The notes beneath the pieces are model-generated. The model was not told where the DNA came from. It worked only from the letters and a program-made list of their open reading frames with translations, and ran no database searches. Below are positions 9,699-59,700 of a stretch of DNA of 64,000 bases, one piece after another. The stretch spans positions 6,973-70,972 of the forward strand of contig JAUSPT010000032.1 of the NCBI GenBank assembly GCA_030652805.1, in the 5' to 3' direction. The position numbers were made by a program, and so were the translations under genes. Position 1 is the first letter of the stretch. Each line of letters opens with the position of its first letter. This DNA comes from a bacterium (lineage in GTDB: Bacteria > JAHJDO01).

Positions 9699-9905
9699 TC
9701 CGTCGACCTTCTAACATTAATCAGTGAACATTTAGTTCTACTTTAATATTACCATAGCTCAGATTGCTTCGTCGTTCCAAAAGATTTCTGAACTTTGCAG
9801 CAAAATTATATTTCAACTTATACAAACGCAAGAATAATTGCAATAGAGAGCATTGACATCATGGTAGAGGTTACAATAATACTGCCATTATAAAGGACGC
9901 TGCTT

Positions 9906-11132
9906 TTAATCAAAACGTTTGATGGTCTTTGCGAAGATTTCCGCTTGACGATCCGCTTCAACAGTATCAAAATAATTGGTTTTCAGCATGATGATCCATG
10001 GCTGGATTTTCTCCCAGACAGGACAACTTCCACGCTCATAGCGGGGTAGCTTGCCTGCGAGCTGAGGATAACGATCCTTGTTCTCATCAACGGACTTGTT
10101 CAGGTTTGCGAAAACAGGTTCAAGATGAACAGGTTGATATGATCCGTAAAAACCGTCGCCTCCAAGCTCAATAAAAGTGGCTAAGAAGTCTGACCACACA
10201 ATATCATTACGCGTGATCCTTGCTGCGTAGTTCCAGTAAGCATTGACGTACCCTTCTGGGTTTTTCTGAGGAACAATCCACTCACAGTCATTAACGACAC
10301 TGTCAAATACATTAGCGCTGTATGTGCGCATCTTTGCCAGTTCATCGATACGCTCAAGTTCAGCTAGCGCTACCGCAGCGGCTATTTCAGGCAGACGCTG
10401 GTTCCAGCCTATACTATCGTGTCTCTGGTAATTCGGTTGGCAACGCAACTGTTCCGAGACTACATTATCGCCCGGTTTAAGAGTAAGATCTTTAAATCCA
10501 ATGGTAGCTGCCTTCCTAGCCGCAAGCGCCAGTGTATCATCTGAACAGATCAAGATACCGCCGTCACCGCAGGTCAGTGTTTTAGAAGACTGAAAACTGA
10601 AGCTGGCAAAATGGCCGATGGAGCCGGTTACGCGTCCTTTGTAGTAACCCAATATGCTCTGAGCATTGTCTTCAATAACAACAAGGTTATGCTCTTCGGC
10701 TAATTCCATGATTGGATCCATATCAGCTGGCAATCCACAGATGGAAACAGGAATAATTGCTCGTGTTCGTGGCGTTATGTGCTTGCGGATGGCGTCTATA
10801 CTGATAGTCCATGTATCAGGATCTACGTCAACAATTATCGGAATAGCATTGCAGTGCAACACTGCCGCCGGAGTTGAAAACACAGTAAAAGTCGGAACAA
10901 TTACCTCATCACCAACCCCAACGCCTGCGGCCATAAGCGCGCTCTGCATTGTAGCAGTGCCGTTGCAGTGAGCTATGCCGTAAGTCTGTCCGAAACGTTC
11001 CGCAAATTCACGCTCGAGCCTAGCAGTCATGCCCACAGAATGGGAATTGTGAAATCCAAAATCAAGAACTTGTTTCACATATTCATAGGACTTTGGTGCA
11101 ACACGCGGGATCCTTTTGGGTAAATTAGCCAT
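9906..11132 (-). CDS. DegT/DnrJ/EryC1/StrS-family sugar aminotransferase (ArnB/perosamine synthase-like)
   Basis: 408 aa. DegT-family PLP fold (GDEVIVPTFT ... SFQSSKTLT lysine region). GC-rich relative to the rest of the genome. Confidence 0.85.
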   Translation of the reverse strand: MANLPKRIPRVAPKSYEYVKQVLDFGFHNSHSVGMTARLEREFAERFGQTYGIAHCNGTATMQSALMAAGVGVGDEVIVPTFTVFSTPAAVLHCNAIPIIVDVDPDTWTISIDAIRKHITPRTRAIIPVSICGLPADMDPIMELAEEHNLVVIEDNAQSILGYYKGRVTGSIGHFASFSFQSSKTLTCGDGGILICSDDTLALAARKAATIGFKDLTLKPGDNVVSEQLRCQPNYQRHDSIGWNQRLPEIAAAVALAELERIDELAKMRTYSANVFDSVVNDCEWIVPQKNPEGYVNAYWNYAARITRNDIVWSDFLATFIELGGDGFYGSYQPVHLEPVFANLNKSVDENKDRYPQLAGKLPRYERGSCPVWEKIQPWIIMLKTNYFDTVEADRQAEIFAKTIKRFD

Positions 11133-34257: not shown

Positions 34258-34924
34258 TATCAAAAAACAGTTAATAGAAATAGGCAAAAAGATTGCTGAT
34301 AAAGGACTAGTTGTAGGTCCGGGCGGCAATATAAGCGCAAGGATTGGCAATATTGTTTATATGAAAGCCAGCGGCATTTGTTTTGAAGAGGCAAAAGCAT
34401 CAGACTATATAGGGGTTAACTTAAAAACAGGTAAGATTGTAGACGGAAGCAAAAAGCCCACATGTGAAATCGCTATGCATTTAGGTTGTTATCTTGAAAG
34501 AAAAGATATAACTGCAGTAATCCACACTCATCCTCCTACTGCTACTGCCGTCGGAATGCTCGGCATAACGCTTGAACCTTTTACACCAGATTTTGTTGCA
34601 CTCGTAGATTCTGATGTCCCAACTATAAACTACGTATGTCCATCAACCAAAGAGCTGGCAAATGAAATAAAAAAAGTTATAAAAAAACATAACGCTGTCC
34701 TGATGTGTAATCATGGACTCTTGACTGTTGGCTCAAATTTAGTGGAAGCTTATTACAGAACACTTCTCATTGAAGATGCCTGCAAAACGTTCGTAGCGGC
34801 AAAGTCACTGGGCAAGATGAAATTTTTTACAAGAGGTCAGGCTAAAGAGATTAATAATCTTAAAGCAGAGTCTTATAGAAAAGCATTGTTAAAAAAAAAG
34901 GAGTATGAGCTATGCCAGATGTAG
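34244..34924 (+). CDS. class II aldolase/adducin-family protein (fuculose-/rhamnulose-1-phosphate aldolase-like)
   Basis: 226 aa. GPGGNISAR motif and a His-rich zinc site HTHP. Confidence 0.8.
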
Positions 34925-35808
34925 ATAGTACCAAAAAGAAAAAGAATTTTTATACAGATATTCCTATGAAAACACCCGGTTTCTTTCTCAAGGGATCGGG
35001 TGCGTATGATTGGGGCATGAAGAATCGCCTGGCACGAATCTTTAAACCAGAAACTGGACGAACAGTAATGCTTGCAATAGATCATGGATATTTCCAGGGG
35101 CCAACAACAGGGTTGGAACGAATTGATTTAAACATTGTACCCCTTGTTCCATACGCTGACGCACTGATGCTTACACGCGGTATTTTGCGAACAACGATAC
35201 CTCCTTCATTCAATAAGGCAATTGTGATGCGTGCCAGCGGTGGACCGAGCATCCTGAAGGAACTCTCGAATGAAGAAATAGCTGTTGGTATCGAGGATGC
35301 TATCCGGATGAACGTGGCTGCAATAGCGATTCAGGTATTTATTGGAGGCGAATTCGAGACTCGTTCGGTACACAATATGACTCGCCTCGTCGATATGGGC
35401 ATCCGATACGGAATTCCGGTTATGGCAGTGACATCTGTCGGCAAGGATATGACCAGGGATGCAAAATATTTTCGCCTTGCCTGCCGCATTTGCGCTGAAC
35501 TGGGTGCACAGGTTGTCAAGACATATTATATCCCGGAGGATTTTGAAACAGTGACAGCCTCCTGTCCAGTGCCCATTGTGATGGCGGGTGGTAAGAAAAT
35601 TCCGCTCTTGGATGCTTTGACAATGGCTTATAACGCTGTGCAACAGGGAGCTGCGGGTGTGGATATGGGACGAAATATTTTTCAGAGTGAGTTCCCGACC
35701 GCCATGATTCAGGCAGTAAGTAATATTGTTCACAAAAATATGAAACCGGCCGATGCACTTGAGGTTTATAACACGCTGAAGAACAAAATGGAAAAGGAGC
35801 AGAAATAA
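34912..35808 (+). CDS. DhnA/FbaB/LsrF-type (DeoC superfamily) class I aldolase
   Basis: 298 aa. MLAIDHG motif, and a Schiff-base lysine context [11 protein letters not shown]-rich relative to neighbours. Confidence 0.75.
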
Positions 35809-36122
35809 ATAGAGTTATCCCTATCATTCGTGGACTTCTGGCGGAATTCTCCGGCAGCGATGACATCCCATATCACCGAGTTATCCTTAAATCGTTTACA
35901 ACCAAAGATACCCGGGATTTCGTAGCTTCATCTCCTCCTCTGTACTTAGATACACTTGAGTACGACGCGGCTCCAGAAAAGCTTCGGGAACATATCTCAT
36001 CGTCACTCGCCGATTATTCACGACAATACGCTGCAAAACCTCAGGTAATATTACTGCCTGATGCTGGAATCGTCCAGGTCATTGAAAAAGCGGCTAAGCC
36101 TGACCCTCCTCTTCGAAACGAA

Positions 36123-36911
36123 GTGGCTCTTCTTACAGGTGCCGCTGGGGCGATTGGTTCTGGAATATGCCGGAGGCTTCTGGAAAATGGCTGCCGAGTG
36201 GCCGCGACCGACTTGCCAGGAAAACGCCTCGACGACTTCGTCTCCGAGTTTAAGAAAAGTGCTGGTGATTACATCATCGGCGTTCCGCTCGATGTGACAG
36301 ACAAGGAGTCAGTAACAGACGGGTTTAACAGTGTTATCCGGGAATGGGGTGGTATTGACATTGTCCTTGTGAACGCTGGTATCCCGTTAATCTCATCAAT
36401 TATGGAAATGAACCTCAATGACTTTCGCCGACTGGAGAAGGTGAATGTTGAAGGCACCTTATTAACACTTGCAGAAGCCGGACGTCACATGTGTTTGCAG
36501 GGTACTGGCGGCGATATCGTTCTTACATCGACAAAGAACGTCTTTAGTCCAGGTGCTCGATTTGGCGCCTACAGCGCAACCAAGGCCGCTTCGCACCAGT
36601 TGGCCAGGATTGCTAGTCTGGAACTTGCTGAATTTGGAATTCGAGTGAACATGGTTGCGCCCGATGCAGTGTTCTCCGATGGAGAATGCAAATCCGGCTT
36701 ATGGAAAAAAATAGGTCCTGATCGCATGCGCCACAAGGGAATTGATGAAAAAGAACTCCATGAGCATTACCGCCAGCGCAATCTCCTTAAGACCACGATA
36801 ACAGCACAACATGTGGCAAATGCAGTATTGTTTTTTGTAACACGGCAGACACCTACTACCGGGGCTACAATTCCGGTGGACGGTGGTCTTCCAGATGCTA
36901 CTCCAAGATAG
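36123..36911 (+). CDS. SDR-family oxidoreductase (with an upstream startless in-frame extension from 35809)
   Basis: TGAAGAIG glycine motif and YSATK. The first start codon (GTG) is at 36123, but the same frame is open from 35809, directly after the upstream stop. Confidence 0.7.
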   Translation: MALLTGAAGAIGSGICRRLLENGCRVAATDLPGKRLDDFVSEFKKSAGDYIIGVPLDVTDKESVTDGFNSVIREWGGIDIVLVNAGIPLISSIMEMNLNDFRRLEKVNVEGTLLTLAEAGRHMCLQGTGGDIVLTSTKNVFSPGARFGAYSATKAASHQLARIASLELAEFGIRVNMVAPDAVFSDGECKSGLWKKIGPDRMRHKGIDEKELHEHYRQRNLLKTTITAQHVANAVLFFVTRQTPTTGATIPVDGGLPDATPR

Positions 36912-36925
36912 ACAACAGGTCTTTT

Positions 36926-37723
36926 TTATTCTGGAGTTTCAGAGATCAAAGAGCAGTCCTTCGGGATTCGTCCCGTAGAATTCCCCTTTATATTTTTTTT
37001 GAGAAGATAATCATTTGTTGATTGTATGGAATTTACAATTACAATAGAATCTTTTCGTATAACAAATTCAGAAAGACCTATTTCTGAAGTGGTTGGGTTC
37101 CAGTCATATGTATATCCTAATCGAGTCCAAGGATATTGTCTGGCGGCATAATAGGATGAAATAATTTTTTTATTAAACCAGTTTATATATGATTTTTCTG
37201 CATTTTCAGGAAATTCTAATTGAACTGATTTATCCCATATTTCGTTATCTGGACTTGGACGAAACAAGCTATCCGGTCTGACCCATAATTCTACAAAATG
37301 AGAATATCCGCTATTTTTAGGAAGGCCTAATAATTGTTCTGTTCTTAAATTTAGTTTTTCATTTTTATAATTATTATTAAACCAATTTTGAACTTCAGGA
37401 ACGATGGTTACCCATGTATCTCCCCAGAAGGTTTTTATAATTTTACTTCTTTTATAATTGTTAATATCTTTGGTCCAGGTAACAGTTAATACATATTTAT
37501 GGCCATTAATTTTCTCCCAACAGATATAGCCGTTTTTCTCATTAATATCAATAAGCCGGTTTGAGATTTCATCTTCTTCTGCAATCATGCTATCAATAAC
37601 AGCACTTTTATATAATGTATCAGTATCAACATGTTTAGAATCAATGATGTTTTTATTTGAACAGCCTAATAACTGTACAAAAATAAGAAGTAAAGTAATT
37701 TGTGTTTTTATATTGATTTTCAT
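36926..37723 (-). CDS. hypothetical lipoprotein
   Basis: 265 aa. Signal peptide with lipobox LLGCS. Trp/Asn-rich, no recognisable domain. Confidence 0.5.
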   Translation of the reverse strand: MKINIKTQITLLLIFVQLLGCSNKNIIDSKHVDTDTLYKSAVIDSMIAEEDEISNRLIDINEKNGYICWEKINGHKYVLTVTWTKDINNYKRSKIIKTFWGDTWVTIVPEVQNWFNNNYKNEKLNLRTEQLLGLPKNSGYSHFVELWVRPDSLFRPSPDNEIWDKSVQLEFPENAEKSYINWFNKKIISSYYAARQYPWTRLGYTYDWNPTTSEIGLSEFVIRKDSIVIVNSIQSTNDYLLKKNIKGNSTGRIPKDCSLISETPE

Positions 37724-39880: not shown

Positions 39881-40856
39881 GATCTCTTGTTTTTTTGTGG
39901 CTGGATATGTCTTGAATAATGCCGAACAAACGAGTTGCCTTATGGTTTTCATCCATTATCAACCACGATTGTATACGGATTGGAAATACGGTTCCGTCTT
40001 TTCTGATATATTCCTTTTCATACACGCCTGAGTACCCTGTTTTCATAACTTTCTTAAAAAGATCATTTTCCATTGCGTGCCATTTTGAAGGTGTGAGTTC
40101 CTGATAAGTAATGGACTTAATTTCTTCAGATGTATACCCGAGCATTTTAAGATAATTCCTATTGGCTTCGATAGTAATGCCATCTAAAGAATTGATAACT
40201 ATACCTTCGTCTTTGTACTTCCTAAGTTCATTAAGAAGAATGTTGTAACTATCAACATTCATTAATAAGCCAGGTCCCAATTCCTTGATTTCTTTAAGAA
40301 GTTTTTGAGAGGATTCAATACTCAAGTTACTATAGTTGATCTCTTTGATGTAGTATCCACTACCGACAACCCATCCGAATGGTTTAAACAGGAGTACGTA
40401 TGATCTCTTGGGTTGAGCTGTGGTCTGTCCCTTCCTCGGAAACCAGTACTCGACATACCCGCCACCAGCTTTGCCTTTTGTCAGGAATCTCTTTATGTAG
40501 AACGTGCCCTGATGGTCTCTGTCCTCAAGTCGATTCCTTCCCTCCACATCTTTTCGGCCGTACAAAACCACATTGACGCCTTCAGTCGTATCGGCCCAAA
40601 AATATCCTTCGGTACCGTACTTAAGTTCTCGCAGAAGGTCGGCACCAAGCTTCTTTGCCTGCTTAAGGTTCATTTCCCCCTGTTGATGTTTTGTGAAAAT
40701 TGCCTGAAGCATGCTGACCGCTGTTTCGACCTCATGCTTGATCAGCAGGTCCTGAGCCGACGAATTTTTCAGCTTTTCAATCTGCGTACAAGCCGGCAGA
40801 CAAAAAAATGAAATACTCAGAAGAACCACAAACATTGTCATCTTTGCCCTTTTCAT
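39873..40856 (-). CDS. Cache (sCache_2-like) + PAS domain protein without output domain
   Basis: Start at MKRAKM, preceded by an AAGGAGGAAGT ribosome-binding site. Signal/lipobox LPAC, then a Cache-like region (YFWADTTEGVNVV...GGGYVEYWF) and a C-terminal PAS domain. Confidence 0.55.
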   Translation of the reverse strand: MKRAKMTMFVVLLSISFFCLPACTQIEKLKNSSAQDLLIKHEVETAVSMLQAIFTKHQQGEMNLKQAKKLGADLLRELKYGTEGYFWADTTEGVNVVLYGRKDVEGRNRLEDRDHQGTFYIKRFLTKGKAGGGYVEYWFPRKGQTTAQPKRSYVLLFKPFGWVVGSGYYIKEINYSNLSIESSQKLLKEIKELGPGLLMNVDSYNILLNELRKYKDEGIVINSLDGITIEANRNYLKMLGYTSEEIKSITYQELTPSKWHAMENDLFKKVMKTGYSGVYEKEYIRKDGTVFPIRIQSWLIMDENHKATRLFGIIQDISSHKKTRDHE

Positions 40857-40908
40857 ACTTCCTCCTTTTTTATTGTTGAGTTGTTCAATGTCGCCTGCAT
40901 CCGTCTTG

Positions 40909-41421
40909 TTATGCTCCTTTTTTAAGCTTAATATTTTGTGTGTTTTGAATATAGTCAGATGCACAAATCATATATTTTTCAAAATTTTCAACGTCAGAAA
41001 ATTCGTTCCCATCACTTCCATATTTACGAATCAACTCTTGACGGTTTTTCATCTCAGAGCGGTCAAGCCATTGTTTGTCAAACAAAACTCCATAGATGAG
41101 ATACGTGGTCATTATCAATCTAATCATCAATTCTCGAATGCGTTTGTTTTGAGTGATTGCTTCTACAGCTTTTGGCTCAATGAGATTTTTGATAGTGTCA
41201 ACCTTGCTTTGAACATCTGGTTGTAGGCTATCATAGACTTTGACAAAATCATCACCCATCAAATAATTAACAACTTGTATTGCAAGAACCTTTGCAGAGT
41301 CTGGAGTCATCTGTGTTCCATACTGAGATGCCAGATCTAGGTATAGACAAAATCTAAGTTTCGAATCTAAATTCGCAATTGCATTGAGTTGGCTACGAAA
41401 ATTCTTTTTTAACCGAAACAT
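40909..41421 (-). CDS. hypothetical protein
   Basis: 170 aa ORF. No recognisable motifs. Confidence 0.4.
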   Translation of the reverse strand: MFRLKKNFRSQLNAIANLDSKLRFCLYLDLASQYGTQMTPDSAKVLAIQVVNYLMGDDFVKVYDSLQPDVQSKVDTIKNLIEPKAVEAITQNKRIRELMIRLIMTTYLIYGVLFDKQWLDRSEMKNRQELIRKYGSDGNEFSDVENFEKYMICASDYIQNTQNIKLKKGA

Positions 41422-41636
41422 ATAAATATCTTCAAATATAGGTAAATATCAAATTGTCAGCATAACAATTAACATATGAAATCCACGTTTTTTGCTTCTT
41501 TATTATAAAACTACCCGAAATATATCAAATTTTTATTGATTTAGTCAAATCAATTCCCGCTAACTTCTATATTTGCAATACAATACCAGTAAAAACGGAT
41601 TCCATATATCCTGGCTGTTGTGGCAGACTACCATTG

Positions 41637-42517
41637 TTACCCTCTTGGATGAAACTTCTGGTGAACTTCTCTGAGGCGGGCTCTGTCTATGTGAGTATAA
41701 ATTTGTGTGGTGGAAATATCTACATGACCAAGCATTTCCTGAACAGACCTTAGATCCGCGCCATGGGAGAGAAGATGTGTGGCAAAACAGTGCCTTAGTG
41801 TGTGAACTGTTATCTCTTTATTCATGCCCATTAATACGGAGTACCTTTTTATTATTTTCCATATCCCCTGTCTTGTATATCTTCTGCCAAGCCGGGTTAT
41901 GAAAAGCATATTGCTGTTACCTCTGGCAACATATTTGCTTCTTACTGCATCTATGTATTTTTTAACAGCTTTTTGAGCTTTTCTGCCAACAGGTATAATG
42001 CGCTCCTTTGAGCCCTTGCCAATACATTTCAGATACCCTTCGTGCAAATCTATATTATCAATAGGGAGATTGATAAGCTCTGATACCCTCATACCTGTAG
42101 CATAGAGGAGCTCAAGTATTGCTTTATCTTTTATTCCCTGTTCTTTATTATCTGGCAAAGCCAATAATCTCTCTACTTCATCCTGAGAAAGCACTTCTGG
42201 TAAAGACAAACCTGTTTTTGGAGAATCTAAATTTAGAGTAGGATCATCGTTTATTACATCTTCATTAACCAGAAACTTATAAAACATTCTTATAGCAACT
42301 AGATTTCTTGAAATGGAACGTATGGCAAGCTTGCTTTTTCTAAGATAAATAAGATAGGCTATTATATCTCTGGGACCTACACCTTCTATGCTGACACTAG
42401 ATTTTTTATCCAAAAAGCCTAAGAATTTAGTTAAGTCTCTCCTGTAAGCCTCTAATGTGTTAGCAGCGAGCCCTCGTTCTACTGAAAGATAATCTATAAA
42501 CTGGTCAAGTAATTGAT

Positions 42518-42521
<4 letters not shown>
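41637..42521 (-). CDS. tyrosine recombinase XerC/XerD
   Basis: 294 aa. N-terminal SAM-like domain and a C-terminal R..HxxR..Y catalytic domain (HTLRHCFATHLL ... TQIYTH). Confidence 0.85.
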
Positions 42522-45876
<3,355 letters not shown>

Positions 45877-45882
45877 ACAATA

Positions 45883-46866
45883 TCATTCCATGCTTTTTCT
45901 CAGTTCATCTATAGACACTGTGGCTGTTCCAAGCTTCCCAACAACAATACCTGCAGCATGATTTGCAATATATGCAGATTCATACATTGATGCTTTATTT
46001 CCAAGACACAATGCAAGCACTCCAACAACTGTATCTCCTGCTCCGGTTACATCAAAAACCTCTTTTGCAACAGTTGGAATATTGGCTACTTTGCCGTCTC
46101 TTTCAAAAAGGGACATTCCCTTCTCTCCGCGAGTGATTAATATTGAATTTGCCTGTAATAACTTTAATAAACTCTTCCCTACCCGCACTAAACTTTGTTC
46201 ATCCTTTATCTCTGTTTTAAGACTCTCTCCCGCTTCATGATTATTTGGTGTTATCATAGTTACGTTCTTGTAATATGTAAGATGTCTTGGTATAGGGTCA
46301 ACAATAATTGGATAATTAAATTCTCTGTTCAACTTTATAATTTGTTTAACTAGATACCGTGTTACAATGCCCTTCCCGTAATCAGATATGACAATGGCAG
46401 AAATTTCACGCATATTGGATTTGATATATGCAAGTATTCTTTTTGCTTCTGTAGACTTAATCTGGCTGACAAATTCCTTATCTGTCCTGACAACTTGCTG
46501 ATGTTGAGCAATGATTCTTGTCTTCACTATAGTTGGTCTTTTCTTGCTTAGAATAATTCCATCCTCATTCATGCCCTGTTTCTTTACCAACTGCAGAAAT
46601 TCTTCTCCTGCAATATCGTCTCCAATAATTCCTGTAATTAATGCCTCTGCACCAAGTGCACATATATTATTTGCAACATTAGATGCGCCACCCATCATAA
46701 TAGATTCGGAGCTGATTTTAACAACAGGCACAGGCGCTTCTGGGGAAATGCGCTCCACAGTGCCCCAGACAAATCTATCAAGCATCAGATCGCCTACAAC
46801 AAGCACTTTTGTGCTCTTAAACCCTGCTATCACGTGTCTCAACTGGTTTATATCTATACCTTTCAT
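45883..46866 (-). CDS. D-glycero-beta-D-manno-heptose-7-phosphate kinase (RfaE domain I / HldE kinase domain)
   Basis: 327 aa PfkB-family kinase. N-terminus KVLVVGDLMLDRFVWG is typical of RfaE domain I. C-terminal GAGD motif present. Confidence 0.7.
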   Translation of the reverse strand: MKGIDINQLRHVIAGFKSTKVLVVGDLMLDRFVWGTVERISPEAPVPVVKISSESIMMGGASNVANNICALGAEALITGIIGDDIAGEEFLQLVKKQGMNEDGIILSKKRPTIVKTRIIAQHQQVVRTDKEFVSQIKSTEAKRILAYIKSNMREISAIVISDYGKGIVTRYLVKQIIKLNREFNYPIIVDPIPRHLTYYKNVTMITPNNHEAGESLKTEIKDEQSLVRVGKSLLKLLQANSILITRGEKGMSLFERDGKVANIPTVAKEVFDVTGAGDTVVGVLALCLGNKASMYESAYIANHAAGIVVGKLGTATVSIDELRKSME

Positions 46867-47393
46867 GCCTTGAATCCTCTCTCTAATGCCTTAACATTTA
46901 TTGGGATAAGATTATGTCTCCTGGGAGGAAGGATTTTTTCTAAAGCTGACTTTAGAAAATCCAGCTTTACCTCACCAGTTTCCCTCGCAAATGCTCCTAA
47001 AACAATCATATTTGCTACCTTCAGATTCTCAAGCCCAATTGCCATATCATTTGCAGGAACTTCTACAACTCTTATTTTAGTCCTTATATCCTTATTTATT
47101 TTTACCAGACTACTGTTCGCAATTATGAGTCCATCATTCAAAACAAGTTTGGAAAATTTATCCAATGATGCCTGGTTCATTACAATAAGCGTATCCGGAT
47201 GTGATATAAATGGAGAAGCTATTTCTCTTTCCGATATAATAACTGAGCAATTTGCAGTTCCTCCACGCATTTCCGGCCCGTATGAAGGAAGAGAGGTAAC
47301 GTGTTTACCTTCTTTCATGCCGGCATATGCCAGCATCTTACCCATTGACACTATTCCCTGCCCGCCAAAACCTGCTACAAGAATCCGCTGCAT
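46863..47393 (-). CDS. porG: pyruvate/2-oxoacid:ferredoxin oxidoreductase gamma subunit
   Basis: 176 aa. GFGGQG motif. Confidence 0.85.
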   Translation of the reverse strand: MQRILVAGFGGQGIVSMGKMLAYAGMKEGKHVTSLPSYGPEMRGGTANCSVIISEREIASPFISHPDTLIVMNQASLDKFSKLVLNDGLIIANSSLVKINKDIRTKIRVVEVPANDMAIGLENLKVANMIVLGAFARETGEVKLDFLKSALEKILPPRRHNLIPINVKALERGFKA

Positions 47394-47411
47394 CTAAAAA
47401 CCACCTTTCAT

Positions 47412-47484
47412 GTCATTGCGAGTCAAAGGCGAAGCAATCTCGTCTTCTGGGATTACTTCGTCGCTAATACTTCTCGTAATGACA
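47412..47484. repeat. Imperfect 73-nt palindrome made of two inverted copies of a conserved motif (GTCATTGCGAG-N4-6-GCGAAGCAATC)
   Basis: Direct copy at 47412-47440 and an inverted, more diverged copy at 47450-47484. A third direct copy lies at 59655-59682. Sits between the porG start and the island. Confidence 0.55.
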
Positions 47485-47511
47485 TCTTTAATCATATTCT
47501 AAAAATTAAGT

Positions 47512-48195
47512 TTAAATTTTCTGCATAATGAACAGTTGCTTAAACCCTCGTAAATAAAAGTTGAATTCTCTTGCTCGTTTATGCCAAATTCCTGTATTGG
47601 ATGTTTGATTGTGCCGTGTAACACATATCATATCAACTGGTTTAAAATATTTTTCTAAAATAGCATACATTTGGAAACCAACTGGGATAAATCCAGTTTT
47701 TTTGCGCCAGTGGTCTCCAATAAGCCATGCCATATACTTTCCTATTTTTAAAATCCGATGCGTTTCCTTTGCAACTTTTCCTAATTCTTCAAAGAATTTT
47801 GTGCTTTCGCAAGAAATGTTACCAATATTATCAGGGTGTTCATTATATTTTATATTATCCGAATAAGGCGAATCAATAAAAACAAAATCTGCGACTTCAT
47901 TATCCAATGGTAATTTTCTAGCATCAGCTTGTTTTATATCTGCTCTGTAAGGCACTATATCAAATCCTAGCACCTCTCGATTTTCTTCCTTACAAACATC
48001 GATAGTAGTTCCACTTCCACACATAGGGTCAACCACCAAATCTCCTTCTTTTGTGTACCTTTGAAGTAAGTTCCAGACAATAAATGCAGGCGTAACACCT
48101 GGATATTTATTATTACCGTGTGGTTTATCCCCATAATTTTGGGTTGGAAAATCCCATAATGTTGTTGTTTCGAATGATGGGGTGGTATTTTTCAT
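47512..48195 (-). CDS. DNA amino-methyltransferase (N6-adenine or N4-cytosine)
   Basis: 227 aa. AdoMet motif I DPMCGSGTT followed by catalytic motif IV DSPY. Confidence 0.8.
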   Translation of the reverse strand: MKNTTPSFETTTLWDFPTQNYGDKPHGNNKYPGVTPAFIVWNLLQRYTKEGDLVVDPMCGSGTTIDVCKEENREVLGFDIVPYRADIKQADARKLPLDNEVADFVFIDSPYSDNIKYNEHPDNIGNISCESTKFFEELGKVAKETHRILKIGKYMAWLIGDHWRKKTGFIPVGFQMYAILEKYFKPVDMICVTRHNQTSNTGIWHKRAREFNFYLRGFKQLFIMQKI

Positions 48196-48196
48196 G

Positions 48197-49477
48197 TCAC
48201 CACCTTATATTTTTATCAAAAACCTTTTGCACTATGAATAAAAGTAATTTGTTAATTTCTATAAAAGTATTTTGTTCACTTTCACTTAGGTTGCTAACAC
48301 TACTTTTCTCTGCTTCCTTTGTGTGAACAACATTATTTCTAATTAAATAAATAATATCTGACAATAGATTAGCCATTTTATCTTTATCCCAGTTATTCGG
48401 CTCTATATCATTTTTGTTTATAACATCTTCACAAAATTTCTTAAAATTCTGAATTTTTGCAAATTCTTCCTTTATAAAAGGGAAATCATTTGAAATATCT
48501 TCAATTACTAATTTCAGCATCCCTCTTTCGCTTTTAGCATTTTCAATCTGTTTAAATTCTTTTTTAGTTTTAAGCTCCTTAAGGCCTTTTATATAATTAT
48601 AAAAGTATTTATAAAAATAAGACTCCAAAGCATGATATAGTTCCAGAAATTGATAACTTGGATCTAAGTTTTCCATTGCTGATATATAAAATTTTAGTGA
48701 GTCAATATTATATTGTTTTTTGTTTGATAATAACAAGGAATCCGTAGCTTTATCGTAGATTTCATTAATGTTTTGTGGCATATTTATTTTAAAAGGAGTG
48801 CGTGTCTTACGTTCAGTAAGTCCTAGGTCGGTACATAACCTGTATAATAACTTTTCTTGTAAAGTTTCTTTATCTTTTTTTACCTTTAAAATATATTTCA
48901 TGGGCTTAAACAAGGAACAAAAATTAATGTATATGTCAGTATCTACACTGAAAACATAATGATTCCTAATAAGCCTTTCTCTAAGTTGAAAAATATAGAT
49001 AGGCAATACCTCCTTTGGATAATATAAGTCTTCTTTACTATCTTCATTTATGAAGAAATATCCCCAGCAATATCTCCTTTTGGATAGAGAACTTTTGGAC
49101 AGAGGGAATAAGTCTGAGTTCTCTTCATCTTTTAAATTCACAAGAGGAGATTCTTTTAGTTCCAGATAAATATAGTTATTTAACTCTAATCTTTGACCAA
49201 TAGGTTTAGCGAACTCAATTGCAGTTTTGTTTAAGAATAAAATATCAAATATAGGTTTAGAGAATTTAATCTTTAACTTTGAAAAATCAACTCCATACTC
49301 TTTATTATCTCTTTTGTAGACAGCACTCTTTAGGGAGTCCAAGAATTCTGGTTTACTTTTCCACAAGCTATCTATTATCTCTTGAGGATACAAGGATATA
49401 ACTTCAGAGTAGAACTTTATAGCCTTTTGTTCATTTATATTGACCATGGACATTATCCTTGAGTTGCCCTTTGCCAT
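48197..49477 (-). CDS. hypothetical protein with C-terminal Rx4H motif (candidate HEPN-like or His-Me-finger nuclease effector)
   Basis: 426 aa, no recognisable domain overall. C-terminal LIRNNVVHTKEAE...N...N. Its reading frame overlaps both neighbours. Confidence 0.4.
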   Translation of the reverse strand: MAKGNSRIMSMVNINEQKAIKFYSEVISLYPQEIIDSLWKSKPEFLDSLKSAVYKRDNKEYGVDFSKLKIKFSKPIFDILFLNKTAIEFAKPIGQRLELNNYIYLELKESPLVNLKDEENSDLFPLSKSSLSKRRYCWGYFFINEDSKEDLYYPKEVLPIYIFQLRERLIRNHYVFSVDTDIYINFCSLFKPMKYILKVKKDKETLQEKLLYRLCTDLGLTERKTRTPFKINMPQNINEIYDKATDSLLLSNKKQYNIDSLKFYISAMENLDPSYQFLELYHALESYFYKYFYNYIKGLKELKTKKEFKQIENAKSERGMLKLVIEDISNDFPFIKEEFAKIQNFKKFCEDVINKNDIEPNNWDKDKMANLLSDIIYLIRNNVVHTKEAEKSSVSNLSESEQNTFIEINKLLLFIVQKVFDKNIRW

Positions 49478-50661
49478 ATCATCTCGAAGTTATTTTCACC
49501 TCCAAGGAATTCATTAAATCCATGAAAGAAAAAGTTTCTAAGGGTAATACCGATCTTTTTTGATCGGGCTTCTTCATCTTCAAGAATATTGCTTAGAATT
49601 CTGAGTTTTAATGGGTCTTCAATATTTTCATCAAAAATTCTGAAGAATTCGCTTTTCCTACTTTCGTAATTTTCATTATTTCTATTTCTATAGTTCCCAC
49701 ATGACGCGAAAAATCCTGACAAAAAAGGTGCAGAATTCATAAAACCGTTTCTTGATGTCCACTCTAACGATTTTTCATTTCCAAAATCATCTGACTCTTT
49801 CATTCTTTCCCTATACTTCTTCCAAAGTTTCTCATCTAAATTAAATAATAAATTTGAGAATTGTTCTATATCATCGTCACTGCACAATTTCAATGTATCT
49901 GAATGTTCTTCAATAAATCGCATCCTTTCCAGTTCTGCCACAACTATATTTGTTTTATCCACTATTGGATCACGAGTATTAAAAGCAGTAAGAGCTTCAA
50001 CTATGTTTGCAAAACTATACTGATATGGTTTTTTTGAAGGAGAAGAATCTTTGTACGTAGAAAATCTCATATCTTCTATTCCACGTTTTGTGGCAATATT
50101 TGATATCGCTTCTTTAAGTGGTATATATAGAATTTCGAGTTGATGGCGCATACTCATTTTAAATTGTCCTGTATTTAATACCAATATCTTATACAAGAGA
50201 GCGTTTGTTTTTATAGAGTACCACAACTCAGCTCTTATTCTCGAACTTTTGAAGTGCTTTAATTTTTCAGGTTTATCTTTCAATTCGTCAATTACATTTA
50301 AAATACAATATGTTCTTTGCAAACCATCTAATATTGAAAGCGATTTCTCATTTACTTTATCGTTTATTATATCTTCTATTCTTTTCGTATCTTCAATATC
50401 CTTTATGCTATCTGAAAATTCTCTGCTTGCCACCAATGAAAGTGGGGGCATAATTGTATTGCTTTTTAAATCTTCTTTTAAACGATTATAGACATCATTT
50501 TTTCTGGAAATAACTTTCCCTCTCTGTATGGGCAAATTCTCTAAATTGTTTTTGACTAATTCAATGTAGTTACCGATACCTATATCTATTAGCAAACATT
50601 TTCCACTTACTTTCTTATCTTCCTTTAAGTCAAATACTCTAATTTTATTATTTATGCCCAT
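49453..50661 (-). CDS. DUF262 (ParB/Srx-fold, GmrS/DndB-like) domain protein
   Basis: 402 aa. N-terminal LPIQRGKV (P-x-Q-R) and LDGLQR (the DGQQR/DGQHR motif) are typical of DUF262. No attached DUF1524. Confidence 0.6.
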   Translation of the reverse strand: MGINNKIRVFDLKEDKKVSGKCLLIDIGIGNYIELVKNNLENLPIQRGKVISRKNDVYNRLKEDLKSNTIMPPLSLVASREFSDSIKDIEDTKRIEDIINDKVNEKSLSILDGLQRTYCILNVIDELKDKPEKLKHFKSSRIRAELWYSIKTNALLYKILVLNTGQFKMSMRHQLEILYIPLKEAISNIATKRGIEDMRFSTYKDSSPSKKPYQYSFANIVEALTAFNTRDPIVDKTNIVVAELERMRFIEEHSDTLKLCSDDDIEQFSNLLFNLDEKLWKKYRERMKESDDFGNEKSLEWTSRNGFMNSAPFLSGFFASCGNYRNRNNENYESRKSEFFRIFDENIEDPLKLRILSNILEDEEARSKKIGITLRNFFFHGFNEFLGGENNFEMIWQRATQG

Positions 50662-50917
50662 TTTTCACTCCTTTTAAAGTTTTCTCCTTACTGTTTTTGT
50701 CCCAATTATAATAAGTCTCCATTACTTTGTTATACATCTCACTTTCAAATCTTTCATCCCTTTTGGCACCAAGAATATTGCTCAAATGGACTTGTGCAAA
50801 AAGTAAATACTCTCTCCGTTTGATAACGTCTGGTGGATATGGTGTAAAATTGGGTCTATTAACAAAGAGTTCATAGTCAATTTTCTTGAATTCTTGCTCA
50901 ATTTGTTTCTTGGTCAT
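50648..50917 (-). CDS. small hypothetical protein
   Basis: 89 aa ORF whose frame overlaps both neighbours within the island operon. Confidence 0.4.
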   Translation of the reverse strand: MTKKQIEQEFKKIDYELFVNRPNFTPYPPDVIKRREYLLFAQVHLSNILGAKRDERFESEMYNKVMETYYNWDKNSKEKTLKGVKNGHK

Positions 50918-51593
50918 TTTTTATTCTCTCCTTCAATAATAATTTTTTTAAATCTTGAAATATTTGATTAAAATTCTTTACCTTTTTGCTTTCTTCGATG
51001 TCTCTGAATATATATGAACCGTCTAACTCGTATTCAGCAATTATTCTGCTTTTCGTTATATCTTTATCTTTGTAAGTAAATATCGTATCATTATCAGTAG
51101 AGACAAGCACTATTTTTATATCCTTCGTTATTTTGCTTGTTCTTAATTTCAACTTCCAATAAGCAGCCTGTGCAACTCTTTCTCTCAGACTGGCCTTACA
51201 TGAAATAATCATTTTTACAGAACAGTCACTTTTATTATAGACTATTATGTCAGCATCAGGTACTACTGAGTGTTTATCATAAAACACTTCCACATTTCTA
51301 CGTACTTTATCTAATTTCTCATTCAGCTTTTTCCTTGAAAGTCTGTTATCGTTTGTTATACCAATATTCTCGTCTAAATTTTGGATAAAATCCTTAACAA
51401 TGAAAGTTATCAACTTTTGCAGATTATGCCCACTCCAGCTATTCCATGCTTGATTAGGATCTTTTCCTCTCCTCATAGCTTCACTTTTGTACTTTTTTTT
51501 AATATCAGAGAATATCTTACTCACGAAATTAAAGTCATTTGGACTTTTCTCCCTTTCCATTAAATATATTTTTTTCAAGTCCTTAAAAGTCAT
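50898..51593 (-). CDS. candidate PD-(D/E)xK restriction endonuclease
   Basis: 231 aa. VPDADIIVYN...KMIISCK resembles a PD-x(n)-(D/E/S)xK catalytic core. Lies directly downstream of a methyltransferase. Confidence 0.45.
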   Translation of the reverse strand: MTFKDLKKIYLMEREKSPNDFNFVSKIFSDIKKKYKSEAMRRGKDPNQAWNSWSGHNLQKLITFIVKDFIQNLDENIGITNDNRLSRKKLNEKLDKVRRNVEVFYDKHSVVPDADIIVYNKSDCSVKMIISCKASLRERVAQAAYWKLKLRTSKITKDIKIVLVSTDNDTIFTYKDKDITKSRIIAEYELDGSYIFRDIEESKKVKNFNQIFQDLKKLLLKERIKNDQETN

Positions 51594-51597
51594 AATC

Positions 51598-52986
51598 TCA
51601 CTCCTTTAAACCAATTACAATATACTCGACAGGATATGCTTGCGAATTCGCATTGTCATTACTTGCAAACCTGCCAGTCTTTTCATCTCTTTTCTGCGGA
51701 AGTATCTTTGAAGGGATTTCTCTTTTTATAATCCTGTCAAGTTTAAAGCCTGAATGTTGCAAACTTTCCGCAAAGACTTCTGCATTTAGTATGTTTACTC
51801 CTTTAAGTTTAGTATCGCCAATGACATAGCAACATCTGCTACCATGCTTTAAAATTCTGAAACTTTCATCAAATACTTCTTCCATATCAATAAAAAATGC
51901 TTCGATTTCTTTTGCCATTTTCTTGCTTTTTGTAGACATTTCAAAAACAATGTCCCTAGCAATTTCACTTTTTAATTCTTTGTCTTCGTACCCTTTGTAT
52001 GAAGTCCCAATAAACTCTTTTTTGTATTCCCCTAAATCATCTACCAAGTCAAACCAGATTGTTGATAACTGATGTAAATCAGCATATTCATAGCTTGTAA
52101 CATAAGGACTTGAACTTACTATTAAGTCAACACTCTCATCAGAAACAGGTTGTCTCCTTGCATCATCAATCTTGATGTTTAGATAATTATTTAGGTTCTT
52201 TCCCATTAATCTCTCAGGAATAACACGATAAAAAGCTTCATTACCTCTCTGCATTTTCCTTAAATGCCTTCGCAATACGTTATAGGGCTTTATCTGCTGT
52301 TTTTTAAAATCTCTTGTTGGTTTTGTGCTCACCTGTAACCATATAGAACAATTTTTCAAGATGTGACTGAAAGCAACGAGGAAAAAGTCCCTGATAGTCC
52401 TATCTTTTTCGTTATAAATAACTCTTAATATTTTCCCAAGCTCAATCTTATTTTCTGTAGTGAACCAGTAATTAATTCTGTCTACATGTTTTTGTGGAAT
52501 TAAAGGATTGATTTGTTGTCCATCCAAAAATTTTAATCTTGATAAAATTTTTATTATTTTTTTATCAAGATATTCAGGATTTATAGGTGTTGCCTTTACT
52601 TTCGTCATTAGACAAGCTATTTTATTAATATCTGTTCCACTAGCTTTAAAGCCTCTCGATATTGCAGTGACTATAGTAGTTCCACAACCCATAAATGGAT
52701 CATTTATATGGGCGTTCTCATCAGATATGTATTCATCAACAAGTTTTTCAACCAACTGAGGAATAAATTTAGCGGGATAACGATGATAACAATGAGTCCA
52801 TTTAGCAGTATCTGACGGCTTATACTCTATAAAAGACCAATCTTTATCAATTTCTTTTTTATTAAAAACTTTGATAATTTTGTTAGCTAGATTTTCTCTT
52901 TCAGATTCAATAAATTGAACAGGAAAAATACCTTCATGGATGTTTGTATTGACTACAGCTCTCTGCATTTCTCTTTCCTCAAGCAC
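51598..52986 (-). CDS. DNA amino-methyltransferase, alpha-class architecture (motif I ... TRD ... motif IV)
   Basis: 462 aa. DPFMGCGTT (motif I) near residue 100 and SSPYVTSY (SPPY-like motif IV) near residue 290. Confidence 0.8.
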   Translation of the reverse strand: MLEEREMQRAVVNTNIHEGIFPVQFIESERENLANKIIKVFNKKEIDKDWSFIEYKPSDTAKWTHCYHRYPAKFIPQLVEKLVDEYISDENAHINDPFMGCGTTIVTAISRGFKASGTDINKIACLMTKVKATPINPEYLDKKIIKILSRLKFLDGQQINPLIPQKHVDRINYWFTTENKIELGKILRVIYNEKDRTIRDFFLVAFSHILKNCSIWLQVSTKPTRDFKKQQIKPYNVLRRHLRKMQRGNEAFYRVIPERLMGKNLNNYLNIKIDDARRQPVSDESVDLIVSSSPYVTSYEYADLHQLSTIWFDLVDDLGEYKKEFIGTSYKGYEDKELKSEIARDIVFEMSTKSKKMAKEIEAFFIDMEEVFDESFRILKHGSRCCYVIGDTKLKGVNILNAEVFAESLQHSGFKLDRIIKREIPSKILPQKRDEKTGRFASNDNANSQAYPVEYIVIGLKE

Positions 52987-53727
52987 CTATCCGCTTTTAT
53001 CCTTAATCACCCCAAGAGGATAAGTCTTTATTAACGTATTATCAATCCACTCCGCAGCTTTCTGTGGAGTCATAGCAAGGTTAACAGGACACTGAGACAG
53101 AACCTCAACCATTGAAAACCCCTTGTCTTCCAGCTGTACTTGAAAAGCTTTTTTGATGGCTTTTTTAGCTTTAATAATATTTGCCGGTTTATTCACTGCC
53201 ACTCTTTCTATATAAATAGATCCATCCGTAATAGCCAGCATTTCTGAGATTTTTATTGGGTATCCAATTAGCCTGGCATCTCTGCCTAAAGGAGTTGTTG
53301 TTGTCTTTTGACTAAGTAATGTTGTGGGAGCCATTTGTCCGCCTGTCATTCCATATACGGTATTATTTACAAATATTGTGGTTATTCTTTCCCCGCGATT
53401 TGCTGCATGAATTATCTCTCCTGTGCCTATAGCAGCAAGATCTCCATCTCCTTGATATGTAAATACAACTTTATCAGGATGAACCCGCTTTATTCCTGTT
53501 GCAACAGCAGGTGTTCTTCCATGCGCAGCTTCAGTCATATCTATATTAAAATAATGATACATAATAACTGCGCACCCAACAGGAGGAACTCCAATAGTTC
53601 TATCCTGAATGCCAAGTTCATCTATTACCTCACCTATTAACCTATGGACAATCCCATGCCCACAACCCGGGCAATAATGAAATGGTTTGTCTGTCATAGA
53701 TCTTGGCCTGCCAAATATCTTCTTCAT
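52987..53727 (-). CDS. porB: pyruvate/2-oxoacid:ferredoxin oxidoreductase beta subunit (TPP-binding)
   Basis: 246 aa. N-terminal CPGCGHG and a TPP-binding GDG region. Confidence 0.85.
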   Translation of the reverse strand: MKKIFGRPRSMTDKPFHYCPGCGHGIVHRLIGEVIDELGIQDRTIGVPPVGCAVIMYHYFNIDMTEAAHGRTPAVATGIKRVHPDKVVFTYQGDGDLAAIGTGEIIHAANRGERITTIFVNNTVYGMTGGQMAPTTLLSQKTTTTPLGRDARLIGYPIKISEMLAITDGSIYIERVAVNKPANIIKAKKAIKKAFQVQLEDKGFSMVEVLSQCPVNLAMTPQKAAEWIDNTLIKTYPLGVIKDKSG

Positions 53728-53729
53728 CT

Positions 53730-54812
53730 CTATTCTTTCTTTTTTGTGCCTTTGTGCCTTTGTACCTCTAATTCTTTAATTCTATTTACTATCTCTTCTG
53801 ACGTAGGAACTCCTCCACCCATTCTTCCATAAAAATACACAGGGCATCTTCCCAGAACCGCAAGTTTTACATCTTCAACCATCTGTCCTGCGCTCATCTC
53901 CACAGTAAGAACATACCTGACATTATTACTTATCTTTCTTATTATTGCTGATGGATAAGGCCATAATGTGATAGGTCGAATCAACCCGGCTTTTATCCCC
54001 TCTTTTCTCAAAAGAAACACAGATTCTTTGCAAATTCGAGCGCACATTCCATAAGCTACCAGTATTATCTCTGCGTCATCTGTCAACACTGCTTCGTATT
54101 CTACAAGCTCTTTCTCTATTCTTCTATACTTGTTCTGAATTTTCTTATTATGCTCTTCCAACTCTCCAACTTTCAGCATCAGAGTCCTGATTATATTTGC
54201 CCTGCGGCCTTTTGCGCCGGTAAGCGCCCATGTTTTTGGGGGAAGCTTCAACTCTTTTATTTTTCTTATTTCCAATGGCTCCATCATTTGCCCGAGGAAA
54301 CCATCTCCCAATATCATCACAGGATTTCGGTATTTATCTGCCAGGTAAAAAGCTCTGGCTGTCCAGTCATAAAGCTCCTGAACAGAGGCAGGCCCGATTG
54401 TAATAAGTCTATAATCTCCATGTCCTCCACCTTTTACTGCCTGAAAGTAATCTGCCTGAGAAGGAGTTATATCTCCCAATCCCGGACCAGCACGCATTAC
54501 ATTCACAATTACACACGGCAGCTCTGCGCCTGCAATATAGGAGATTCCTTCCTGTTTAAGACTTATTCCAGGACTGGATGAAGATGTCATAGCTCTTGCG
54601 CCGGCCGCTGACGCGCCAAAGACCATGTTAATGGCAGCAAGCTCACTTTCAGATTGGATAAAGACACCTCCAAGTTCACCTAATCTCTCTGCCATATATG
54701 CGGTTAATTCATTCTGCGGAGTTATAGGATAACCGAAATAATGCCTGCATCCCGCCTGAATCGCGGCCTCTCCAACAGCGCCATTTCCACTCATTAAGAC
54801 TTTCTCTGTCAT
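53730..54812 (-). CDS. porA: pyruvate/2-oxoacid:ferredoxin oxidoreductase alpha subunit
   Basis: 360 aa. Typical N-terminal MSGNGAVGEAAIQAGC and transketolase-like domains. Confidence 0.85.
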   Translation of the reverse strand: MTEKVLMSGNGAVGEAAIQAGCRHYFGYPITPQNELTAYMAERLGELGGVFIQSESELAAINMVFGASAAGARAMTSSSSPGISLKQEGISYIAGAELPCVIVNVMRAGPGLGDITPSQADYFQAVKGGGHGDYRLITIGPASVQELYDWTARAFYLADKYRNPVMILGDGFLGQMMEPLEIRKIKELKLPPKTWALTGAKGRRANIIRTLMLKVGELEEHNKKIQNKYRRIEKELVEYEAVLTDDAEIILVAYGMCARICKESVFLLRKEGIKAGLIRPITLWPYPSAIIRKISNNVRYVLTVEMSAGQMVEDVKLAVLGRCPVYFYGRMGGGVPTSEEIVNRIKELEVQRHKGTKKKE

Positions 54813-59614: not shown

Positions 59615-59654
59615 TCGATATTTCCTCTTAGCTTTAAGTATTCATTCACACTGC

Positions 59655-59682
59655 GTCATTGCGAGTGTCAGCGAAGCAATCT
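59655..59682. repeat. Third copy of the GTCATTGCGAG...GCGAAGCAATC motif, upstream of kdsA
   Basis: Both 12-mers (GTCATTGCGAGT and GCGAAGCAATCT) are identical to the copy at 47412-47440. Lies about 40 nt upstream of the kdsA start. Confidence 0.5.
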
Positions 59683-59700
59683 TGCTTGTGCTGCATACTT

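Follow-up and report, generated by a model that had tools for sequence, protein, structure and literature searches.

How a central-metabolism operon can hold a block of defence genes in its middle, and where such a block comes from, is the question raised by a locus in the bacterial metagenome-assembled genome GCA_030652805.1 (GTDB lineage JAHJDO01). The window is the whole stretch of DNA analysed, 64,000 nt of contig JAUSPT010000032.1 (positions 6,973 to 70,972, forward strand). Between roughly 43 kb and 64 kb, all of its genes lie on the minus strand. Here the genes of a four-subunit oxidoreductase are split: delta, a membrane protein, alpha and beta lie on one side of a 5.6-kb block and gamma on the other. 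The block encodes a DNA methyltransferase (M1), a restriction endonuclease (R), a protein of 89 amino acids (aa; s89), two proteins assigned to the Dazbog defence system (DzbA and DzbB') and a second methyltransferase (M2). A first, sequence-only reading had described it as an old restriction/defence island within a pyruvate:ferredoxin oxidoreductase operon. The explanation favoured here, and held to be probable, is that a conserved defence cassette entered the operon between the beta stop and the gamma start as a copy lacking a promoter, and that it is a restriction-modification system with a nested Dazbog pair as a second layer.

Insertion between the beta and gamma genes

The block was inserted between beta and gamma. 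The site is empty in four contigs of close relatives (L082, L083, L115 and L116; 87-94% nucleotide identity, same flanking genes), in which beta and gamma are 2 nt apart. This is the adjacency without insert that the sequence-only reading had proposed to look for. A distant comparison set comprised 80 loci from many phyla that encode beta subunits 58-69% identical to that of the window. Gamma directly follows beta in 80 of 80, with gaps of 1-204 nt, and recognisable delta and alpha genes stand directly upstream of beta in 72. No homologue of the island genes or of the membrane protein was found in these 80 loci.

Relative L082 (GCA_043824255.1) aligns with 91-93% nucleotide identity over window positions 59642-52990 and 47387-41638. 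The common flank on the beta side comprises genes for KdsA-like and KpsF-like proteins, NAD kinase, delta, a GT39-type protein, alpha and beta. On the gamma side, it comprises gamma, PfkB, a metallophosphatase, LigA, a metallo-beta-lactamase and a XerC/D-like protein. The JGI metagenome contig L083 has the same empty site, and so have L115 and L116 (GCA_030611945.1 and an ENA contig), which are 87-90% identical. In L084, a 73%-identical relative, the beta-gamma gap is 13 nt.

Blastn breakpoints against the four relatives and the junction sequences delimit the inserted DNA (Table 1); the limits first proposed, 47394-52990, differ by one base. The insert takes the place of 8 nt (GAATAGTG or GATTAGTG) of the ancestral junction. 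This junction reads ...AGC GGA GA(A/T) TAG (T/C)G ATG in the relatives. With the insert edges marked by double slashes, the window reads ...AGC GGA // TAG GTG CTT ... (5596 nt) ... GGTTTTTAG // ATG. Beta has lost its last codon and ends with KDKSG, where the relatives end with KDKSGE or KDKSGD. Its stop codon TAG sits at the insert edge. No clean target duplication was found at the insert ends; only the trinucleotide TAG is shared by both edges. Direct or inverted repeats at the flanks of the insert did not exceed chance level.

The insertion is younger than the splits from three related lineages (87-94% identity). The term old insertion is unsupported, because the cassette is missing from these lineages; the arrival post-dates the split from the approximately 90% identical relatives.

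The lower guanine-cytosine (GC) content noted earlier was borne out by sliding-window and tetranucleotide checks. Block GC is 0.313, compared with 0.378 in the rest of the window; no other 5.6-kb window has so low a value (mean 0.373, standard deviation 0.022). The tetranucleotide distance of 0.262 is the largest (mean 0.140, standard deviation 0.036). GC at third codon positions is 0.26-0.33 in the island genes and 0.26-0.37 in the host genes. Composition alone is weak evidence for a foreign origin, because these third-position values are host-like; it agrees with such an origin and is no proof by itself.

Scans found neither a tRNA nor an integrase or transposase within the block or next to it, as had been read from the letters. 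The block thus lacks the marks of a classical genomic island or integrative element, namely an integrase or transposase, a tRNA target and flanking direct repeats. Illegitimate recombination is pointed to by the lack of a recombinase, a tRNA and a clean target duplication. In searches for a vehicle, R had no plasmid match, M1 had plasmid matches of at most 31% identity and viral contigs contained no relative of s89. Of the recombinases, a XerC/D-like tyrosine recombinase (41637-42521, Phage_integrase 3.5e-51), located 5 kb downstream of the insert, comes nearest to the block; its conservation in relatives without the island makes a housekeeping role probable.

Restriction-modification backbone

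The six open reading frames (ORFs) of the block are co-directional. At their longest, the junctions from M1 to M2 are a 4-nt gap, overlaps of 20, 14 and 25 nt and a 1-nt gap, as had been described. For two genes, M1 and DzbB', the longest-ORF start is probably too long.

The genes M1 and R have the features of a type II restriction-modification system, a methyltransferase with S-adenosylmethionine (SAM)-binding and catalytic motifs and a separate endonuclease gene beside it. M1 has the SAM motif DPFMGCGTT and the catalytic motif SSPY; M2 has DPMCGSGTT and DSPY. Comparison with the PDB gave generic methylase matches for both, and these matches do not separate N4-cytosine from N6-adenine methylation.

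R has the motifs PDADII ... SCK-ASL-RER. Residues D113, D115, S131, K133 and R137-E138-R139 are invariant in eight cassette copies and constitute the motif of CCGG-family nucleases. A profile of these eight copies matches BsaWI (PDB 4zsf) with an E value of 6e-5, with S-K-x3-R-E-R aligned to S-K-x3-R-D-R of BsaWI. PDB searches with the single sequences of R and DzbA gave chance-level matches only. The R-(D/E)-R element of CCGG-family nucleases reads the CCGG core. A CCGG-type core site is predicted for R, because R keeps the S-K...R-E-R motif of BsaWI.

Avoidance of CCGG or WCCGGW was considered as a readout of the R site and proved uninformative, with no avoidance in the host and an inconsistent picture in the cassettes. 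The window cassette has 0 CCGG, compared with 2.4-3.0 expected; other copies contain CCGG and WCCGGW. Other tetranucleotides are under-represented: the observed/expected ratio of GATC is 0.54 in the window and 0.45 in L082, that of CTAG is 0.58 and that of GGCC 0.70. Restriction of another kind acting on the lineage could be behind these depletions.

The protein s89 is strongly conserved: it has 91 homologues, and those aligned are 53-83% identical. Its predicted fold is a three-helix bundle (predicted local distance difference test score 84). It has no PADLOC, Pfam or NCBIfam match, and its fold and family matches point to no function.

Dazbog pair

DzbA is a full-length match to the PADLOC model: residues 8-396 cover model positions 3-382 of 393. 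It bears the DUF262-like motif DGLQR and has no Pfam match. The following protein, DzbB', has no direct match in PADLOC, Pfam or NCBIfam. Its homologues (35-57% identical) match PADLOC DzbB at 1e-11 to 8e-16. The DzbB' profile aligns with canonical DzbB from Bacillus cereus and Moritella plasmids with an hhalign probability of 78% (E value 1.8e-5), and NPxxxFLxLYxxLES and YxIRNxIVH are common to both. The subfamily is called rare, because its profile matched only 72 proteins among 1.84 billion representatives. Of ten weaker profile matches sampled, eight match DzbB and nothing else. DzbB' is likely homologous to DzbB, as a divergent subfamily.

The C-terminus of DzbB' contains R370-N-N-V-V-H375. 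This R-N-x-x-V-H sequence is invariant and is the Rx4H signature; it lies in a four-helix up-down bundle, as is characteristic of HEPN domains with their Rx4-6H motif. DzbB' would be the effector of the pair, probably an RNase.

The Dazbog system of Bacillus mycoides acts in a manner similar to abortive infection and becomes toxic once the cytosine methylase of phage SPR is expressed; phages that escape it are unmethylated at CCGG (bioRxiv 10.1101/2022.08.27.505566). The DUF262 domain of DzbA was suggested by the authors to sense modified DNA (bioRxiv 10.1101/2022.08.27.505566; PMC10952713). Canonical plasmid DzbA/DzbB pairs match both PADLOC models strongly. They adjoin assorted restriction or cytosine-methylase genes in four of the six loci inspected, in no fixed operon.

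One conserved nested cassette

Loci with DzbB' relatives were obtained by look-ups (L086-L091) and by a metagenome scan (L094-L105). As far as the contigs reach, every fetched locus has the order M1-R-(s89)-DzbA-DzbB'-(s89)-M2, with s89 located either after R or after DzbB'. The neighbours of the cassette differ wholly: one locus has archaeal-type Alba, HTH_10 and EarA genes, another belongs to Melioribacteraceae and a third has genes for SLH-domain proteins. The cassette is conserved across distant phyla and spreads horizontally. The copies of R fall into two allele groups (Table 1), and both keep the catalytic and RER motifs. These groups do not track DzbA similarity, which implies that modules have been swapped within the cassette.

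The backbone also exists in other forms. In L112 and L113, both labelled Bathyarchaeota, and in L114, M1-R-s89-M2 stands without any cargo. In L110 and L111 (WOR-3), an unrelated pair of 144 and 511 aa occupies the slot held by Dazbog elsewhere. In L089-L091, M2 is cut to a fragment of 87-99 aa, which is followed by an AbiV-like HEPN gene. In the cargo-free locus L114 (3223-7630), a TIR-TPR gene stands right after M2. Elsewhere on this contig, a second s89 copy adjoins another type of methylase and a protein of 380 aa, with an M2 remnant behind them; s89 is therefore linked more widely to methylase and nuclease genes.

On gene order and similarity, the six genes form a single conserved nested cassette and not an accretion of separate systems. 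The oxidoreductase operon holds a restriction-modification operon, which itself holds a Dazbog pair, because the backbone occurs alone and with other cargo. Of the term restriction/defence island, the defence content stands; island does not, with one conserved nested cassette in every DzbB' locus. A free-standing two-gene Dazbog was not seen in this subfamily: in every locus the pair is nested inside M1-R-s89-...-M2.

Table 1. Features of the interrupted operon and of the inserted DNA, in window coordinates.
Feature	Position	Strand	Basis	Identity of other cassette copies to window copy
Inserted DNA, 5596 nt	47394..52989	-	blastn breakpoints vs L082, L083, L115, L116 and junction sequences	
M1, amino (N4-C/N6-A family) DNA methyltransferase, 462 aa	51598..52986	-	Pfam N6_N4_Mtase 7e-14; PADLOC MTase_II 1.8e-54	72-81%, short end fragments higher
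R, BsaWI-family PD-(D/E)XK type II restriction endonuclease, 231 aa	50898..51593	-	Pfam RE_BsaWI 2.8e-25	two allele groups: 78-81% and 35-39% (copies L086-L104)
s89, conserved protein of the backbone, 89 aa	50648..50917	-		57-69%
DzbA, Dazbog component A	49453..50661	-	PADLOC DzbA 1e-80, full length	53-86%
DzbB', likely divergent Dazbog component B, HEPN-like C-terminus	48197..49477, annotated start 49447	-		32-75%
M2, small second amino DNA methyltransferase, 227 aa	47512..48195	-	Pfam N6_N4_Mtase 3e-22; PADLOC MTase_II 1.8e-28	63-86%
Nested-hairpin palindromic repeat, TGTCATTGCGAG ... GACGAAGCAATC-type inner stem ... CTCGCAATGACA	47411..47484	.		
8-nt direct repeat TTTTTAGA bracketing the palindrome	right copy 47393..47400, left copy 47498-47505	-		
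Delta (ferredoxin) subunit, 67 aa	56691..56894	-	NCBIfam delta-subunit models	
PMT_2/GT39-type membrane glycosyltransferase between delta and alpha, 623 aa	54823..56694	-	Pfam PMT_2 6e-13	
Alpha subunit	53730..54812	-	NCBIfam NF005507 (VorB-type subfamily) 549.6 bits, cut-off 399	
Beta (thiamine pyrophosphate-binding) subunit	52987..53727	-	Pfam TPP_enzyme_C	
Gamma subunit, 176 aa	46863..47393	-	Pfam POR 5e-39	

Transcription and translation at the insertion site

The first island gene had been placed directly at the beta stop codon without a spacer. This holds for the longest ORF; M1 more likely starts at ATG 52968, with GAGGA 7 nt upstream, at most 18 nt from the beta stop. Other cassette copies have sigma-70-like promoters upstream of M1 (TTGACA-17-TATAAT in L110, similar in L089 and L114). 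The window cassette is probably transcribed by read-through from the host operon, because at most 18 nt before M1 leave no room for a promoter. The transcriptional embedding proposed earlier is therefore plausible. Pattern scans of the region for promoters and terminators gave background levels.

At the other end, the 118-nt spacer between M2 and gamma and the palindrome within it were located correctly at first reading. Gamma is now preceded by a Shine-Dalgarno-like AAAGGTGG from the inserted DNA, located in the palindrome-bearing segment.

The palindrome has arms at 47412-47422 and 47473-47483. Members of the family fold as RNA at -28 to -33 kcal/mol; the window copy folds at -28.4 kcal/mol (z = -3.4). 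The family, with its TGTCATTGCGAG/CTCGCAATGACA arms and GACGAAGCAATC-type stem, occurs in unrelated uncultivated bacteria: in L072 and L062 (19005-19097), and partially in L002 and L104. The Omnitrophota contig L072 has two copies (1053-1136 and 3159-3259), just upstream of delta and in the beta-gamma gap, and no cassette. In the window, a half copy is located at 59655-59690, where synteny with L082 ends. The palindrome was not found after M2 in other cassette copies. Thus the 73-nt palindrome of the sequence-only reading exists but is no part of the cassette; it is a separate element resembling miniature inverted-repeat transposable elements (MITE) or repetitive extragenic palindromic sequences. 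It has no Rfam match, and its strings led to no relevant paper in the literature searched.

The direct repeat TTTTTAGA around the palindrome may be its target-site duplication. A shared word of 8 nt was reached in 53 of 5000 shuffles, and the right copy takes in the A of the gamma ATG. The repeat suggests a MITE-like insertion after the arrival of the cassette.

Two other roles of the palindrome were rejected. As a terminator, it is not reported by the scan of the spacer, and the sole U run starts approximately 11 nt after the stem. As an attC site of an integron cassette, it would be expected at cassette ends; it is not conserved there, occurs independently elsewhere and no IntI was found.

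The host operon

The interrupted enzyme had been labelled a pyruvate:ferredoxin oxidoreductase. Scores with pyruvate-specific models (PorA, PorB and PorC equivalogs) are far below the cut-offs. The enzyme is best called a generic four-subunit 2-oxoacid:ferredoxin oxidoreductase, because alpha passes the VorB-type model NF005507 and none of the pyruvate-specific ones. The order delta-alpha-beta-gamma agrees with 2-oxoglutarate/2-oxoacid-type operons. The split of the subunit genes and their coordinates hold as first described.

Gamma is intact. It has 176 aa in both the window and L082 and 93.2% amino acid identity between them, with 16 synonymous and 12 non-synonymous codon differences. The alpha subunit shares 96.7% identical amino acids with that of L082.

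The glycosyltransferase gene between delta and alpha starts within an overlap with the delta stop and has a GC of 0.340. It is kept in the relatives L082 and L115 and is absent from 80 of the 80 distant loci. It is an older, second interruption of the oxidoreductase operon, lineage-wide and outside the defence cassette. In L115, a KilA-N domain gene (6025-6846) lies between the glycosyltransferase and alpha genes. Foreign genes have therefore entered this operon at three different intergenic points within the lineage.

Proposed mechanism and alternative explanations

The favoured explanation starts with a cassette copy without promoter, which landed between the beta stop codon and the gamma start codon in place of 8 nt. 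M1 and M2 would methylate the host's own sites, and R would cut unmethylated incoming DNA. By analogy with the Bacillus Dazbog, DzbA and DzbB' may form a second line: abortive infection when a phage methylates its DNA to escape restriction. The HEPN-like domain of DzbB' would then halt the cell. The cassette would be read through from the host operon, and gamma, 5.6 kb downstream, would be translated from the Shine-Dalgarno-like AAAGGTGG brought by the insert. The palindromic element probably landed at the cassette/gamma junction afterwards. The two layers could coexist, because the host marks would be amino-methylation and the known Dazbog trigger is a C5-methylase. That restriction and Dazbog are functionally coupled is a tentative proposal drawn from this analogy, and rather doubtful.

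Several points weigh against this explanation. The backbone exists without cargo, so the layers are perhaps merely linked. DzbA of the window has only about 27% identity to the Dazbog that was tested. The host window shows no avoidance of CCGG (observed/expected 1.15), and the cassettes show none consistently (13 observed vs 20 expected over eight copies). The left junction, beta to M1, is present in a single assembly only.

An extension of the favoured explanation would treat M1-R-s89-M2 as a carrier operon with a dedicated slot for interchangeable abortive-infection modules. The modules seen are Dazbog, the pair of 144 and 511 aa in WOR-3 and the AbiV-like HEPN gene replacing M2. The nested Dazbog would guard its carrier as PrrC does, silent under host amino-methylation and firing through its HEPN RNase when a phage methylates CCGG-type sites. 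This is possible, though on balance unlikely. The opposite view, for which the chances are likewise modest, is that the six genes are independent systems (restriction-modification, Dazbog and a spare methylase) joined by tight linkage, and that the slot in the operon is merely permissive. It agrees with the backbone without cargo and with unrelated cargo, and with R alleles that were exchanged without regard to DzbA similarity. Two genes suffice for canonical Dazbog to work, and plasmid Dazbog adjoins various unrelated restriction systems or none. It is opposed by the DzbB' subfamily, which was found only inside this backbone with gene order kept at identities down to 34%. This confinement argues for long-term selection for linkage. 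Furthermore, the fold of R is that of the CCGG family, and Dazbog is reported to be triggered by CCGG methylation.

An ancestral cassette that the relatives lost by deletion is very improbable. Restriction-modification systems are sometimes lost, and nothing more direct speaks for it. Beta and gamma are adjacent in three related lineages (L082; L083; L115 and L116), in L084 and in the 80 distant loci. All three related lineages have one tightly spaced junction, in which 2 nt separate the beta stop from the gamma ATG. Independent deletions would need to restore the lost codon and the exact spacing, and the block is the compositional outlier of the window.

Delivery as an integron-like or recombinase-borne cassette, with the 3' palindrome as the recombination site, is similarly far-fetched. 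The tightly packed co-directional ORFs, the imperfect palindrome at the 3' end and a tyrosine recombinase 5 kb away are reminiscent of it. The palindrome lacks AAC...GTT core sites, does not stand at the ends of the cassette elsewhere and occurs alone in unrelated genomes, including the beta-gamma gap of the Omnitrophota genome; the recombinase is conserved in relatives without the island. Least credible of all is a chimera of assembly or binning. For it speaks that the source is a metagenome-assembled genome whose beta/M1 junction appears in one assembly only. Against it, both block ends meet the host at one point of one 8-nt junction, and run SRR13727525, assembled independently in Logan, yields an 11.5-kb contig that is identical all the way from M1 to the host genes beyond gamma (window 40699-52185, 100% identity, including the M2-gamma junction).

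Comparison with known systems

Type II restriction-modification complexes are known to insert into operon-like clusters without a linked mobility gene (Kobayashi and co-workers; PMC2993543). The window resembles these cases with a methylase-endonuclease block in a co-directional host cluster, no mobility gene and an empty site in relatives. It differs by a second defence system, a conserved small protein and the loss of its own promoter region. The operon-splitting insertion itself is a new example of a described kind. It provides a nucleotide-resolved natural case of a restriction system inside a central-metabolism operon that did not destroy it: the downstream gamma gene stays intact and gains a new ribosome-binding sequence.

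R is similar to BsaWI (W^CCGGW; PDB 4zsf; Pfam PF18643), with a profile that aligns across the catalytic D...SK and the R-(D/E)-R region. Unlike the situation in BsaWI, it is too dissimilar for a single-sequence match and has two partner methylases of the amino (N4/N6) family. The Dazbog pair follows the described system (Millman et al. 2022) in the full-length model match of DzbA, the likely member of the DzbB superfamily directly after it and the order of both. In contrast to the canonical free-standing two-gene unit, DzbB' is rare, divergent and found only nested in one restriction-modification operon.

PrrC invariably accompanies a type I restriction locus, which silences it, and is activated by a phage anti-restriction factor (PMC1484252, PMC3458546). 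By analogy, PrrC may be the closest known logic for the window cassette. As in the type Ic EcoprrI hsd locus, a putative abortive-infection effector gene is located inside a restriction-modification locus. PrrC is one ABC-ATPase/RNase protein of a type I system, with T4 Stp as the trigger, whereas the window has a DUF262-like and HEPN-like pair in a type II operon. DzbA, with its DGxQR-type motif and reported role in sensing modified DNA, also resembles the DUF262 modification-sensing systems GmrSD, BrxU and SspE. Unlike these, it has no DUF1524 nuclease domain, and its partner is a separate HEPN-like protein.

Neither a conserved carrier operon that offers a slot for cargo nor a Dazbog subfamily restricted to such an operon is described in the literature searched, and this absence is no proof of novelty. 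The nested cassette is the more useful result, since the sole functional clue to Dazbog is its activation by a phage methylase that modifies CCGG. A Dazbog subfamily fixed inside an operon with a nuclease of the CCGG-family fold constitutes a clonable 5.5-kb system for questions about Dazbog. It bears on Dazbog as a back-up of restriction, on DzbB as a HEPN RNase and on the discrimination between host and phage methylation.

Further observations on the window

Two stretches have a high GC of 0.45-0.49, compared with 0.37. The stretch at 34500-37000, with genes for DeoC-type aldolase and short-chain dehydrogenase, ranks second among the tetranucleotide outliers of the window. The stretch at 9000-11000 encodes a DegT-type aminotransferase gene. 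Synteny with the 92%-identical L082 stops at window position 59642; at this place, L082 (1-1490) has 5S and 23S rRNA genes, whereas the window is protein-coding.

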